Origin: Nitrospirota bacterium
Lineage (GTDB): Bacteria > Nitrospirota > UBA9217
Assembly: GCA_963737155.1 (NCBI GenBank)
Contig: CAVTRN010000001.1
Span: 1,056,001 to 1,120,000, forward strand
Length of the DNA stretch: 64,000 nt
Direction of reading: 5' to 3'
In this document: in pieces, positions 39,026 to 43,049 of the stretch
How positions within the stretch are numbered: the first letter of the stretch is position 1
Layout of the letters: each line of letters starts with the position of its first letter
Made by a program: the position numbers and the translations under genes
The notes under the pieces: model-generated
Told to the model about the DNA's origin: nothing
Databases searched by the model: none
The model's input: only the letters and a program-made list of their open reading frames with translations

Positions 39026-39780
39026 AGACTGGTGGAGAAACGGAGGTTCGTGTTTTTGCGGACTTGGAGGCGCTGAGCCGGATTGCAGCGGATATCTTCG
39101 TATTGCTATGCAAGGATGCATCAGCTTCGAAAGGTAGGTTTGCCGTTGCACTCTCAGGCGGATCCACACCGCGGCGCTTTCTTTCCCTTCTTGCAGGAAG
39201 TCCCTATCAGGAACAAATCACCTGGTCCACTGTACATATTTTCTGGGCTGATGAACGTTGCGTTGCCCGGGAAAATCACGAGAGCAATTATAAACTCGCT
39301 TATGAGACATTGCTATCCAAAGTCCCTATCCCGGAGGAAAACATCCACCGGATCAAGGGAGAAATGAACCCGGAACAGGCCTCGCGGGATTATGAAGATT
39401 CTCTGCGGATGTTTTTCGGAACACAGCCAATTCCGGTTTTTGACCTCATTGTCCTGGGGGCGGGAGAAGACGGACATACGGCATCCCTTTTCCCAGGTTC
39501 TACGGCTGTGCATGAGCGGACAAGAATTGTCCTTCCAGTATATGTTGAGGCTCCGAAGCTGAACCGGGTTACACTGACACTCCCTATTTTGGACAGTGCC
39601 TCGTACGTTCTTTTTCTGGCGTCGGGGCGCATAAAAGCAGCGGTACTGCACGAGATCCTCGAAGATGGAAACCCGAAGTATTATCCTGCCGGTTTAGTGC
39701 GGCCCGTTCATGGCCGCTTAACGTGGCTGATTGATCGCGATGCCGGAAGCCTGCTGACGAAACAGTATTTTCACCGATGA
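39022..39780 (+). CDS. pgl: 6-phosphogluconolactonase
   Basis: ALSGGSTP, FWADERCV, LGAGEDGHTASLFP; GTG start overlaps the zwf stop. Confidence 0.95.
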   Translation: MKTGGETEVRVFADLEALSRIAADIFVLLCKDASASKGRFAVALSGGSTPRRFLSLLAGSPYQEQITWSTVHIFWADERCVARENHESNYKLAYETLLSKVPIPEENIHRIKGEMNPEQASRDYEDSLRMFFGTQPIPVFDLIVLGAGEDGHTASLFPGSTAVHERTRIVLPVYVEAPKLNRVTLTLPILDSASYVLFLASGRIKAAVLHEILEDGNPKYYPAGLVRPVHGRLTWLIDRDAGSLLTKQYFHR

Positions 39781-39899
39781 CGTGGACGCGCAATTTTGCC
39801 TCGGTATCCACCGAACCGCATCTCGGAGTGACAGCAGACGCAGGTTTTTTATGGTATCTTTTATATAACGATTTGGCTAGGAAAGGAGGTGAAGAGAGG

Positions 39900-40022
39900 G
39901 TGAAAAAGATCATGAGCAAAGAAGCAACAGCCAAGGAGGCAGCCTACTGGAACCTCATGAAACAGCTGGCAAAACAGAACCCCGGTACGGTATGCCACAA
40001 ATGAAAGGGCTGAAAGAGCTAG
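39900..40022 (+). CDS. Putative 40-aa selenocysteine-containing RiPP precursor MKKIMSKEATAKEAAYWNLMKQLAKQNPGTVCHKUKGUKS (selenobiotic/SbtA-like)
   Basis: Strong SD AAAGGAGGTG, GTG start at 39900, in-frame TGA at 40002 and 40011 giving CxxUxxU, TAG at 40020, SECIS-like hairpin directly after, rSAM/SPASM gene downstream. Confidence 0.8.
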
Positions 40023-40040
40023 TGTTGCTGGTCAGCAACA
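40023..40040 (+). promoter_or_regulatory. Bacterial SECIS-like hairpin
   Basis: Perfect stem TGTTGCT/AGCAACA with GGTC loop, close to the E. coli fdhF SECIS upper stem-loop (GGUUGCAGGUCUGCACC). Loop starts 17 nt after the second UGA and 26 nt after the first. Confidence 0.72.
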
Positions 40041-40185
40041 GCAGGGAAACCGGCGGACAGGACTGGTTCGCTACGATGTTGTAGTATGTTCCTGACCGGC
40101 TATGTCCGTCTGTTTCCGTTTTTCCCGATTCAATGCATTGATCATCCCTAATGGCGAAGTCATTCTCAACAATCATCGGGCCGCG

Positions 40186-41229
40186 ATGTCAACCAACAAA
40201 CCCTTCGATTTTTTTATTCAGTGGCATCTGACCGAGAACTGCAACCTCTCATGCCGCCATTGCTATCAGGGAGAGCAGGTCACCGATGAAATGCCGCTGG
40301 CCGATATTAAAAGAGCCATAGCTGAAGCTGCGGACATGGTCACTGCCTGGTCGGAAGACTACGGCGTCACTTTTTCCCGGAGCATAAACATCACCGGCGG
40401 GGAGCCCCTTTTAAGGCGGGACCTCTTTACCATACTCGACGACGTCCGGAGACAAGGCTTTGGCTGCTACTTGCTCACGAATGGGACGCTCGTCACGAAT
40501 GACGTTGCCAAAGCGCTCGTCGAGCTGAAGATCAAGGGTGTCCAGGTCAGCATAGAAGGACCTGAAGAAATCCATGATTCCATTCGGGGCAAGGGAAGCT
40601 TCACCGCAGCAGTATCGGGGGTCGAGCATCTCGTTGATGCTGGGATCTCGGTTACGATAAACGTTACGCTGTCCAGTCTGAACGCATCTTTCCTGAAACA
40701 TATCATCGCCCTCGCTTCCCATATTGGCGCAAGACGGATTGGTTTTTCGCGCCTCGTTCCCGCAGGCAAGGGACAATTCCTGCTCTCCCGCATGCTGGGG
40801 CCGTACGAAGTAAAGGAATTATACGAGTCAGTGCTGCCGCTCGAGATCAGGGCTTTGGAGGTTGTGACCGGCGACCCCCTTGCAGCGCAGATCAAGCATC
40901 TGTCGAACGGCGATGATGGAAATACGGCAATAAGTGGCTGTTCCGCGGGCGTATCGGGGCTGACAATACTTCCCAACGGCAATGTGATGCCCTGCAGAAG
41001 GCTGCCACTGTCCCTTGGAAATGTCCGAAGAGATTCACTTCGCGAGATCTGGGCCACGTCGCCCGTACTGGAGGCTCTCAGGGATCGGCGCAGATACAAA
41101 GGTAAATGCGGAACTTGCCACCGCTGGGCACGTTGCCGCGGATGCCGGGCTATCGCTTATGCTTACTCGCGCTCCCAGGGCAACGACGATTTTCTCGCCG
41201 ACGATCCGCAATGCTTTATTCCAGCGTGA
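40186..41229 (+). CDS. Radical SAM/SPASM-domain protein, probable peptide maturase
   Basis: QWHLTENCNLSCRHC, TGGEP, LTNG; SPASM Cys pattern CSAG...GNVMPC...GNV...CGTC....CRGCR...DPQC. Start uncertain (40186 preferred over 40102). Confidence 0.9.
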   Translation: MSTNKPFDFFIQWHLTENCNLSCRHCYQGEQVTDEMPLADIKRAIAEAADMVTAWSEDYGVTFSRSINITGGEPLLRRDLFTILDDVRRQGFGCYLLTNGTLVTNDVAKALVELKIKGVQVSIEGPEEIHDSIRGKGSFTAAVSGVEHLVDAGISVTINVTLSSLNASFLKHIIALASHIGARRIGFSRLVPAGKGQFLLSRMLGPYEVKELYESVLPLEIRALEVVTGDPLAAQIKHLSNGDDGNTAISGCSAGVSGLTILPNGNVMPCRRLPLSLGNVRRDSLREIWATSPVLEALRDRRRYKGKCGTCHRWARCRGCRAIAYAYSRSQGNDDFLADDPQCFIPA

Positions 41230-41308: not shown

Positions 41309-42348
41309 ATGAAAGCACTTGTAACGGGTGGGACAGGATTTATAGGGAATAACGTCATCGATCTACTTGCCGCAGACGGCCACAGCGTCCGTCTTTCAGC
41401 CGGAAAACCGGAATTCCGGCACGGTTTTCGGAAAAAGATGTTTCGGTATATAGCGGCGATCTTGAAGATGCCGAATCAGTTCTGCGCGCCATGAAGGGAA
41501 TGGATGTCTTATCACATTGGCGAAATCAAAAACACTTCCCCCCGCACTGTAAAAAACAATTTAAAACTGATGGAGAGCGTGGTCGGTCATCTGGAAGCAT
41601 CAGGCGTAAAGCGTATTGTCTTCTTTATCAGGTCCATTACTGTTGCAGGAATCTCCGGGGTAAAACCGCCACTGAGGATACTCCGCCCCAACGTCTACTA
41701 AGGGATCCCTATACGCGGTATAAGGAACAATGCGAGAAACTCCTCTGGGAAAAGACCGCCGGGACACCGTATACCGTGATCCGTCCGGTGTGGTCTACGG
41801 TTCCGCTTCCCGGTATCTTGGCGGCTTAATCTCGGCGGTTGATCGGCTGGGGAAAATCGGGACCCCTTTATCGGGCAGGGCAGGAGTATTGCCCCACTTG
41901 TGCACGTGAAGGATCTTGCACGCGCCATATACCGTGCAGGGATAGAAGAAGCAGCCGCCGGCATGATTTTCAATATTACAGATGGAATGAATGACACCTG
42001 GTCTGATTTCCTGCATGCGATCGGGAGCGCACTTGGGAAAGAGATCACGATCCTGCCGGTTCCGCCTCTTTTGTTCAACCTCCCGGCGCGTTTTTTTGAC
42101 CTCTTCGCCGGGATCGCCGGCTCGACCGTGAGTCCGGAAGCCTTTGTGAGCTATGTCACAACAGACCTACTTTTCACGAACGACAGTCGCAGCGGCTTCT
42201 CCATTGGAAGCCGGAATATTCGCTTGCGCTGGGTGCCGAAGAAATGGTGAGCGACTACAGGCAGCGGCGGGGACAGGCGAAGCATAGGATAATTTATCAG
42301 CAGGCCGGCGTTGCTCAGAGCACCCCCCGAGATAGGTGGAAAAAATAG
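41309..42348 (+). pseudogene. Frameshifted NAD-dependent epimerase/dehydratase (extended SDR)
   Basis: VTGGTGFIG, GDLED, YTRYK, VIRP, VHVKDLARA and FNITDG are spread over at least four ORF fragments in different frames; end approximate. Confidence 0.8.
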
Positions 42349-42503: not shown

Positions 42504-43049
42504 ATGAAGAGCAGAAGTTTTGTGTATGTTATGATGGTATTGCTTGTAAGCGCTTTCACTCTCTGGGGATGCCCCAAAAAAGCTGAAGTGACCAGCGCGC
42601 CTGAGGTCCAGAAAGAATCAGTGCCAGCCCAGCCGCCGGCAAAGGAAGAGATGAAAGCCGCTCCTCCAATGGAAACGCCAGCAGCTGGACCAAAAGAGGA
42701 AATGCCGGCCTCGGCAATGGCGGGACTCCAGCCGATTTATTTCGATTTTAACGAATCCTTTCTTCGGAGCGATGCAACGGCGGTTATGAAGGCTAATGCC
42801 GACTGGCTGAAGGCCAACCCGACGGCAATGATCAAAATTGAGGGTAATTGCGACGAGCGCGGGACGGAAGAATACAATCAGGCCCTCGGCCAGCGGCGCG
42901 CATCCAGCGCTAAAAAATATCTGACCGACATGGGCATATCCGCAAATCGCATCTCGCTTATCAGCTATGGCAAGGAAAAACCGGTCTGCGGAGAGCATAC
43001 GGAAGAATGCTGGCAGAAGAACCGGCGCGACGATTTCGTGGCGCAATAG
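42504..43049 (+). CDS. pal: Peptidoglycan-associated lipoprotein
   Basis: Lipobox LWGC, IYFDF, IEGNCDERGTEEYNQALGQRRA, SYGKEKP, NRR. Confidence 0.95.
   Translation: MKSRSFVYVMMVLLVSAFTLWGCPKKAEVTSAPEVQKESVPAQPPAKEEMKAAPPMETPAAGPKEEMPASAMAGLQPIYFDFNESFLRSDATAVMKANADWLKANPTAMIKIEGNCDERGTEEYNQALGQRRASSAKKYLTDMGISANRISLISYGKEKPVCGEHTEECWQKNRRDDFVAQ

Follow-up and report, generated by a model that had tools for sequence, protein, structure and literature searches.

The window analysed here is a stretch of 64,000 nucleotides (nt) from a Nitrospirota bacterium (assembly GCA_963737155.1, contig CAVTRN010000001.1, positions 1,056,001 to 1,120,000 of the forward strand). Between positions 39882 and 41229 of this window the forward strand carries a small putative selenopeptide gene with two in-frame TGA codons, two predicted RNA hairpins and a gene for a radical S-adenosylmethionine (SAM) enzyme with a SPASM domain. 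The small gene and the enzyme gene are the subject of this analysis.

A GTG at 39900 opens the small open reading frame (ORF; 39900-40022), 8 nt behind a Shine-Dalgarno sequence, AAAGGAGGTG, at 39882-39891. Forty codons precede the stop. They comprise 34 sense codons followed by a first TGA (residue 35, 40002-40004), AAG GGC, a second TGA (residue 38, 40011-40013) and AAG AGC, and the frame is closed by TAG (40020-40022). With TGA read as selenocysteine (Sec, U), the product would be MKKIMSKEATAKEAAYWNLMKQLAKQNPGTVCHK-U-KG-U-KS-stop, the first residue being V or M. A TGC (Cys) codon stands three codons ahead of the first TGA, so that the motif is C-x-x-U-x-x-U. An earlier note, made from the letters of the sequence, had described just this arrangement of ribosome-binding site, GTG start, two TGA codons at three-residue spacing from the Cys and a TAG end, and every element of it is present.

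Residues 1-31 make up a conserved leader-like part and residues 32-40 the core, C-H-K-U-K-G-U-K-S. Mean column identity is 80% in an alignment of 30 family sequences. Residues M1, K2, K3, E13, W17, K21 and P28 of the leader are kept across these loci, E13, W17, K21 and P28 being invariant, and the core reads C-[HR]-K-U-K-G-U-K-[STA]-stop at all 30. The start codon is ATG in 27 of the 30, and a GGAGGTG-type block also precedes the aligned start in related loci. A longer reading in the same frame, from an ATG at 39777 (75 residues), was rejected: the homologues begin at the aligned M-K-K behind the Shine-Dalgarno sequence, and the sequence upstream of that point is unrelated between homologous loci.

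Conservation of the double-UGA reading frame

Homologues were sought with a six-frame protein search that reads through stop codons and merely counts them. Of 64 genomes from the same family, 37 have a full-length homologue with exactly two TGA codons, at identities from 95% down to 51%; this and the conserved core bear out the proposal that the frame is a real double-selenocysteine ORF. With a profile of the 30 family sequences, matches were obtained in 73 of 401 sampled Nitrospirota genomes. True members are present in 72 of these, and the matches spread over 12 families when the window's own is counted. One weak, Cys-containing match (genome G317, locus L083, E 8.2e-4) turned out to be part of a longer frame and is a non-member. 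Twenty-seven loci (L067-L093), namely all profile matches flagged as having fewer than two TGA codons plus further members, were read individually. The pattern C-x-K-U-x-x-U-[KR]-x is present in 26 of them, with KG, KS, NS or SS as the central pair; in related cores the residues before the second Sec are KS, NS, SS, KE, KA or KK. Both TGA codons occur in every true homologue obtained from the searches that did not select for TGA.

The spread of the gene was followed further by scanning one genome per species, for 185,579 species, with a degenerate DNA pattern. At least 120 stretches matched. Among the matches listed (80 loci) 52 are true members that also carry the full leader, the other 28 being chance matches or lying at locus edges. 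The members listed are labelled Nitrospirota, Thermodesulfovibrionales, Dissulfurispiraceae, 'Nitrospiraceae' metagenome-assembled genomes (MAGs), Syntrophorhabdaceae, Syntrophobacterales, Desulfobaccales and Thermodesulfobacteriota; Deltaproteobacteria-type MAGs also carry the peptide gene. In 52 distinct core sequences the codons of Cys32, Lys34, Lys36, Gly37, Lys39 and Ser40 show synonymous variants, and the frame closes with TAA (30), TAG (5) or TGA (17). The pattern used for these codon counts required both TGAs, and for this reason the invariance of the TGA codons rests on the homologue, profile and locus readings. A third Sec at the closing TGA of the 17 loci was considered and rejected as a rule, since 35 of the 52 end in TAA or TAG. 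At the level of sequence, conservation of this kind excludes a chance explanation for the double-TGA frame. One genome (G343) holds three copies of the peptide gene (L078, L079, L080) and one orthologue of the enzyme, which adjoins L079 only.

The public databases hold the peptide in a shortened form. A word-indexed protein search returned nine relatives, none of which extends beyond the first 85% of the query; those with a name are called 'hypothetical protein'. An exhaustive profile search of 1.84 billion representative proteins gave 94 hits, a few of them unrelated repeat proteins. Nearly all end at profile position 34, the point of the first TGA, so the database forms are 34-residue truncations, as expected from the earlier remark that gene callers would cut or miss the frame. 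The sole full-length hit reads three TGA codons as W, which points to a different code setting in gene calling. A check proposed at the outset, whether homologues carry Cys in place of TGA, gave the opposite of a Cys lineage: none of the 94 hits among the 1.84 billion representatives has Cys at position 35 or 38. The peptide matched no NCBIfam or Pfam model. The cassette is absent from current annotation resources, the peptide being cut or missed and the enzyme entered as 'radical SAM protein' or, wrongly, as 'heme synthase'. We found no description in the literature of a C-x-x-U-x-x-U peptide paired with a radical SAM enzyme, although supplementary tables of selenoproteome surveys might list the family.

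The SECIS-type hairpin, the selenium machinery and a second RNA element

The earlier note had also placed a hairpin resembling a selenocysteine insertion sequence (SECIS) right behind the ORF. It is there, at 40023-40040, wholly behind the stop codon. The arms GTTGCT (40024-40029) and AGCAAC (40034-40039) form a six-base-pair stem, GUUGCU/AGCAAC, around a GGUC loop (GGTC in the DNA, 40030-40033), and the first arm begins two bases past the stop. RNAfold, run from the second UGA, gives seven base pairs (40023-40029 with 40034-40040), the extra one being a possible U-A pair between 40023 and 40040. The E. coli fdhF SECIS has the same apical loop of four nucleotides.

By anchored counting, 90 of the 91 distinct sequences have the hairpin; in 72 of the 91, the U in GGU stands at +22 or +23, counted from the U of the second UGA. 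Hairpins with loops of five nucleotides exist; the counts given here use anchored counting and the covariance-model alignment. A covariance model was built from 24 gap-free examples; at E <= 0.01 it finds 76 of the 91 loci. In the alignment to this model 99.3% of 450 cells are paired, and slid registers reach at most 61%. Compensatory double changes occur in three of the six hairpin pairs, and the loop-closing pair is C-G in 38 cases, U-A in 34 and A-U in 3. The fold of the region 39990-40100 is no better than that of shuffled sequences (z -0.52), and comparative counts were used instead because the hairpin is too small for a whole-region shuffle test. Rfam returned nothing relevant over 39700-40300 (the sole match was a chance miRNA family, E 0.91), which is not evidence against a SECIS. 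The single sequence without the hairpin (L140) has its 3' arm replaced by unrelated sequence; it may be an assembly artefact or a dead copy.

The genome has the machinery that selenocysteine insertion needs, a check that had been suggested for this peptide. All four components score above their curated cut-offs: selB (374 bits), selA (604), selD (370) and tRNA-Sec (65), with selB and selA side by side. The selD gene (contig 1, 1242985-1243899, locus L010) itself carries one TGA, in the context G-A-G-U-A-C-K, followed by a hairpin that also has a GGU apical loop, with its U at +26. This hairpin is useful as a SECIS reference from within the genome. Sequence comparison leaves, within its limits, very little doubt that the small ORF encodes a peptide with two selenocysteines, is widely conserved in a Sec-only form and has a SECIS.

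The peptide locus has a single hairpin of this type. The distance from its GGU loop is 22 nt to the second UGA and 31 nt to the first, and this one hairpin would serve both codons. Some points tell against so complete a decoding. The distance suits the second UGA, and the first is 9 nt further off. E. coli SelB is sensitive to the spacing between UGA and hairpin, so the first UGA is possibly decoded poorly. The covariation score, reached by none of 500 shuffles, was counted on an alignment fitted to the model structure, which favours that structure. The case for Sec insertion at either UGA is, moreover, a comparative one.

A second RNA element lies between the two genes (40045-40124, forward strand). 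It is a long interrupted hairpin (40045-40117) with a fold energy of -33.6 kcal/mol (z -2.72; 4 of 200 shuffled sequences fold equally well), and a U-rich run, GUUUUUCC, comes after it. Of 90 related loci, 34 have a GCAGATATG-like motif, located 40-60 nt beyond the first UGA and about 12-15 nt past the SECIS. In 30 of these 34 it opens an inverted repeat of 7-17 base pairs, often followed by T-runs. A simple terminator scan called nothing at 40045-40124. The element is probably a terminator or attenuator between the peptide and enzyme genes, which would let the peptide message exceed the enzyme message. The stem sequence itself (GCAGATATG...CATATCTGC) is kept across families with a T-rich tail behind it, and such a sequence-conserved palindrome might be a site where a protein binds, beyond a role as terminator.

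Contigs from RNA libraries of relatives (less than 95% alike; two runs of one study) span 39880-40313 and 39880-40039, and none of the sequencing runs contains half of the stretch. These contigs are no more than a hint, since they cannot show transcription, its start or its level.

The radical SAM/SPASM enzyme and its association with the peptide

The next gene (40186-41229, forward strand) encodes a protein of 347 residues and is, as the earlier note had said, of the radical SAM/SPASM type (PF04055, 77.7 bits; PF13186, 47.2 bits). The range given in that note implied a start at 40102, and this has to be moved. In 27 of the 29 family loci that have the gene, an ATG stands before the aligned motif M-[SAP]-x-x-x-P-F-[DE]-F-F-I-Q-W-H, which sets the start at 40186; of the remaining two loci one has no ATG in range and one runs off the locus. 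The cysteines of the CxxxCxxC motif (C19, C23, C26) and seven SPASM cysteines (C252, C270, C308, C311, C317, C320, C343) are invariant in sets of 39 and 36 aligned orthologues, and the enzyme should therefore hold three [4Fe-4S] clusters.

No curated family claims the enzyme. The scores, each with its cut-off in bits, are AhbD 185.7/500, NirJ2 176.7/500, GeoRSP 158/400, MftC 146.6/265, SbtM 137/350, StsB 117/625 and PapB 87/340. AhbD (TIGR04545) is thus the top-scoring curated family, and some orthologue records carry a heme-synthase name; orthologues are entered publicly as 'radical SAM protein', 'radical SAM protein with 4Fe4S-binding SPASM domain' or 'AdoMet-dependent heme synthase'. The assignment as AhbD heme b synthase was rejected, the score falling well short of the cut-off. 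A different gene of this genome is a true AhbD (526.5 bits), which makes the heme-synthase name wrong for this clade; AhbD-type paralogues occur in family genomes with or without the peptide. The nearest solved structures, all distant, are SkfB (E 2.3e-13), PqqE in second place, CteB (E 5.4e-9), MoaA and anSME. Of 8,000 database candidates scored, 1,854 reach E <= 1e-60 against the enzyme.

In the family, 29 of 30 loci have the enzyme gene directly behind the peptide gene and on its strand; the remaining locus is cut by a contig end. Among loci of other lineages, 35 had enough flank, 7 were left out and 28 were analysed; the enzyme is the next gene in 22 of the 28. The association also holds across genomes. 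Orthologues (at least 395 bits) and paralogues (at most 163 bits) separate cleanly. With an orthologue threshold of E <= 1e-90, 71 of the 401 Nitrospirota genomes have both peptide and enzyme, 2 the peptide only, 2 the enzyme only and 326 neither. Genomes with both belong to 11 families. The peptide-only cases are G053, where a contig ends, and G317, the weak non-member; the enzyme-only cases are G039 and G047, the latter with a copy that has an internal TAA and lacks the N-terminus. Where the peptide stands apart from the enzyme, an orthologue of 433-474 bits was found elsewhere in all five genomes tested.

A structural model of the complex also favours binding, without showing it. The input was the window enzyme with 35 database orthologues and the peptide as its translation-table-11 product, 34 residues ending at K34, with nine database relatives; three 4Fe-4S clusters and SAM were supplied as ligands. 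The complex reached an ipSAE of 0.86 against 0.54 for the best of three controls. In a calibration that is roughly applicable, given that the model used its own alignments and ligands outside the calibration set, 58 of 80 solved complexes came up to that mark, as did 2 of 110 mismatched pairs. The model runs agree in at least 83% of contacts, with a partner pLDDT of at least 80. In the model the invariant peptide residues E13 and W17 rest on the invariant W55 of the enzyme and on residues 58-61 and 286-291, and peptide residues 28-34 lie beside enzyme residues 229-231, 249-253 and 270-272, which include the SPASM cysteines Cys252 and Cys270. Taken together with linkage and co-occurrence, the SPASM enzyme is with good confidence the functional partner of the peptide.

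The two are separate genes, as the frame of the enzyme relative to the peptide is 0, 1 or 2 depending on the locus; a fusion or a frameshift was rejected on this ground. In a subgroup with the core ending U-S-S-U-K-S (L076, L077, L082, L103, L166) the core motif of the enzyme begins about 10-30 nt past the SECIS and the enzyme frame is open back into the peptide core, where the TGA codons form part of GTG A and TTG A, possible starts. This suggests overlapping, translationally coupled genes. In one of the five genomes tested with the peptide apart from the enzyme (locus L218; genome G397, contig 93) a remnant core, ...GKVCHK-U-KS-U, runs straight into the hairpin upstream of an enzyme orthologue. 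It has no K-S-stop and no recognisable leader, and an intact peptide gene lies on another contig of that genome.

Upstream of the peptide gene the window carries gnd, tal, zwf and pgl, genes of the oxidative pentose-phosphate pathway; zwf/pgl stand beside the peptide only in the window's own family. At the 28 loci of other lineages 142 of the 153 called ORFs were compared with Pfam, the 11 omitted being short ORFs that overlap the peptide region on the opposite strand or are cut at the ends. Recurring neighbours are YceI-like proteins (5 loci), ADP-forming acyl-CoA synthetase (3), Fe/Mn superoxide dismutase (2) and a DsbH-type thioredoxin (2). No recurrent exporter, protease or immunity gene was seen in this comparison. 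A PEMT/ICMT-type membrane methyltransferase of about 190 residues, as a rule behind the enzyme, occurs in three of the 28 (L074, L091, L107). It could act as an additional tailoring enzyme, such as a carboxyl or selenol methylase. At L091 this methyltransferase gene lies directly behind the peptide gene, and the radical SAM enzyme is elsewhere in that genome.

Downstream of the enzyme in the window, the region 41309-42250, ahead of an OmpA-like gene (42504-43049), holds only short ORFs. The first of them (41309-41494) aligns to the NAD-dependent epimerase family over its N-terminal 29 positions only, and the region looks like a frameshifted or decayed epimerase gene. In two loci of the same family (L125, L173) the OmpA-like gene is the next Pfam-annotated gene past the enzyme.

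Possible function of the cassette

We propose that the peptide is the substrate of the SPASM enzyme and that the two genes form a cassette in which a selenopeptide precursor is modified by its maturase. Both statements are probable, with less assurance than the partnership itself. The 40-codon ORF would be read through both UGAs as selenocysteine, directed by one SelB-binding hairpin behind the stop. The N-terminal 31 residues would act as an amphipathic leader that docks on the 347-residue enzyme, and docking would place the C-x-K-U-x-x-U-K-x core next to the auxiliary Fe-S clusters. There, SAM-derived radical chemistry would act on the Cys/Sec core. Formation of a seleno- or thioether ring appears the most likely outcome, with an SbtM-like oxidation of Sec as the alternative. 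Both the reaction and the biological role, including modification at Cys/Sec as such, are read from the gene arrangement and from likeness to known enzymes.

Several observations weigh against this proposal. The enzyme has no N-terminal RiPP recognition element (RRE; RiPP, a peptide made on the ribosome and modified after translation) or PqqD-like domain, as only about 13 residues precede the radical SAM core, and no separate PqqD-like gene was seen among the 142 neighbouring ORFs compared with Pfam. Such an absence is unusual for a leader-dependent SPASM maturase. The best family scores are to heme-pathway enzymes (AhbD, NirJ2) and not to peptide maturases. The enzyme gene is not adjacent in 6 of the 28 loci of other lineages, two genomes have the enzyme without a detectable peptide, and the co-occurrence table overstates its own weight because related genomes are not independent. 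As to the complex model, the peptide in it was cut at K34 and so has no Sec core, its calibration is the approximate one described above, one control complex itself reached 0.54, and a passing score can reflect likeness to solved complexes of radical SAM enzymes with peptides.

The alternative that survives best is that the peptide is a finished product: a small C-x-x-U-x-x-U selenoprotein with a redox or metal-binding function, which would serve the enzyme as selenium donor, electron or metal carrier or chaperone and would itself stay unmodified. Parts of a 2026 review (PMC13188914) list UxxU double-Sec motifs for other bacterial families, and UxxU and C-terminal 'UXX-star' selenoproteins are thought there to be metal ligands or redox motifs. 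The likeness is real: the Secs are three apart, or the Sec is three from the C-terminus with the SECIS behind the stop. These motifs, unlike the present one, belong to domains of larger proteins or to other families (Prx-like, NF041115, FmdB, NF041114, NF041211), none of which matches the peptide, and none is described with a SPASM partner in those parts of PMC13188914. The recurrent redox-related neighbours (YceI in 5 of 28 loci, the superoxide dismutase and DsbH-thioredoxin in 2 each, zwf/pgl in the window's own family) suit such a protein, as do the absence of an RRE, protease or exporter and the loci where the peptide stands apart, and the modelled binding and co-occurrence would suit a partner as well as a substrate. 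Set against this, 31 conserved residues that dock along the enzyme in the model, followed by a nine-residue core that would lie at the SPASM clusters, is the layout of leader and core in peptides modified by radical SAM enzymes. Where SPASM enzymes of similar length, encoded beside a small peptide gene, have been tested, they are maturases (PMC9204691, PMC10177961). On balance we regard a finished selenoprotein as unlikely.

Two further alternatives are much less probable. The small ORF could be a selenium-sensing leader, in which passage of the ribosome through the UGAs sets the folding of the downstream hairpins and hence the expression of the enzyme, the peptide having no function. Two UGAs, a SECIS and the terminator-like second hairpin do sit between ORF and enzyme, and in some lineages the enzyme frame overlaps the ORF end. 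A sensor of this kind is hard to reconcile with an amino-acid sequence that is kept, with synonymous codon changes, over the whole ORF, with the persistence of ORF and SECIS away from the enzyme in at least six loci and in three copies in one genome, or with a modelled complex that passes its controls. Equally improbable is that translation ends at the first TGA to give a 34-residue product, conservation beyond it being that of RNA structure only. This agrees with all public gene calls. The codons between and after the TGAs, however, keep K-x-x-U-[KR]-[STAG] with synonymous changes, the third stop varies between TAA, TAG and TGA whereas the first two never do, and the SECIS-type hairpin and the Sec machinery are both present.

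Least probable of all is membership of the SbtA/SbtM thio(seleno)oxazole, or 'selenobiotic', family, as the earlier note had suggested: the general layout is the same (as outlined in PMC9204691) and the enzyme aligns to the SbtM model, but none of 30 family members matches TIGR04081, the peptide has no GGUG or SGUG, the 137 bits fall well short of 350, and the genome holds a true SbtA elsewhere.

The comparison with that system is instructive in its details. As described in excerpts of PMC9204691, SbtA and SbtM form a selenium RiPP system of Geobacter and Desulfobacteria, with Sec in a GGUG motif and a long maturase, and SbtM oxidises Cys/Sec in SbtA; the review (PMC13188914), in the parts drawn on here, lists SbtA as a 'selenobacteriocin', TIGR04081, with SGUG. 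Both systems have a short ribosomal peptide with one or more in-frame UGAs, a SECIS and an adjacent radical SAM/SPASM gene, in both the gene callers truncate the peptide, and the hosts of both are anaerobes with Sec machinery. The peptides are unrelated in sequence. The 30 family members gave no TIGR04081 hit even at E <= 10 (cut-off 30.5 bits), and a six-frame TIGR04081 search of the genome found nothing at the peptide locus. The Sec contexts in the window are K-U-K and G-U-K, and the core, C-x-K-U-x-x-U-K-x, is at the very C-terminus and is not Gly-rich. The leader is a charged helix, whereas the SbtA of this genome is hydrophobic and rich in Gly, Ser and Thr. The window enzyme, at 347 residues, is without the N-terminal extension of SbtM; only positions 198-516 of the 516 in the SbtM model (TIGR04082) are matched. 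The true SbtA lies on another contig (contig 2, 745269-745346, locus L222; 38.9 bits) and has one Sec, in GGUSG. About 1 kb downstream is its long radical SAM paralogue, an SbtM-like enzyme (contig 2, 746315-747274) in an open frame of 609 residues, 31% identical to the window enzyme. The presence of this pair means that the two systems are distinct and coexist in one genome.

Other likenesses are those of analogy. Ranthipeptide and sactipeptide maturases (Tte1186/SCIFF, PapB, CteB, SkfB) share with the window system a SPASM domain with two auxiliary clusters, a Cys-rich C-terminal core and a conserved leader. According to portions of PMC10177961, PapB and Tte1186 accept Sec where the cross-link forms, with the Se bound to an Fe of an auxiliary cluster. 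The natural cores of these systems are all-Cys and their maturases have an N-terminal RRE, whereas here Sec is obligatory and there is no RRE. Mycofactocin (MftA/MftC) and PQQ (PqqA/PqqE) resemble the cassette in having a tiny, highly conserved precursor with a fixed C-terminal core, a SPASM radical SAM enzyme, no exporter and a tight phyletic co-occurrence; they differ in needing a separate PqqD-type chaperone and further enzymes, none of which is linked here, and in cores without Cys or Sec. The nearest analogues are the thioether-forming SPASM maturases in mechanism, and the peptide-derived cofactors mycofactocin and PQQ in biology. The peptide and its enzyme most likely represent a new family among radical SAM-associated selenopeptides.

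The leader and core are nearly invariant in many families of bacteria, no Cys version was found, and the loci show no exporter, protease or immunity gene. These features would suggest an intracellular, selenium-dependent peptide active in redox chemistry or metal binding, and not a variable bacteriocin. Together with neighbours of redox type (zwf/pgl, superoxide dismutase, thioredoxin-like and YceI proteins), they fit a cofactor better than an antibiotic. A more specific and quite tentative suggestion, possible but doubtful at present, is that the cassette makes a compound derived from the peptide and obligately containing selenium, either a redox cofactor or a carrier of metal. This would be the selenium equivalent of mycofactocin or PQQ and would belong to the core physiology of anaerobic Nitrospirota (Thermodesulfovibrionia) and of several Desulfobacterota lineages.

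SbtA/SbtM is the sole selenium-containing peptide system modified by a radical SAM enzyme that has been described, and the present cassette, unrelated to it and far more widely distributed, would be the second. The family fills a gap in catalogues of prokaryotic selenoproteomes and in RiPP mining tools, by which ORFs with in-frame stops are passed over. With two UGAs nine bases apart and one hairpin behind the stop, it offers a compact natural case that would be useful for the spacing rules of SelB and for the engineering of peptides with multiple Secs. The apparent lack of any Cys counterpart in this selenoprotein family argues that the product needs selenium itself.

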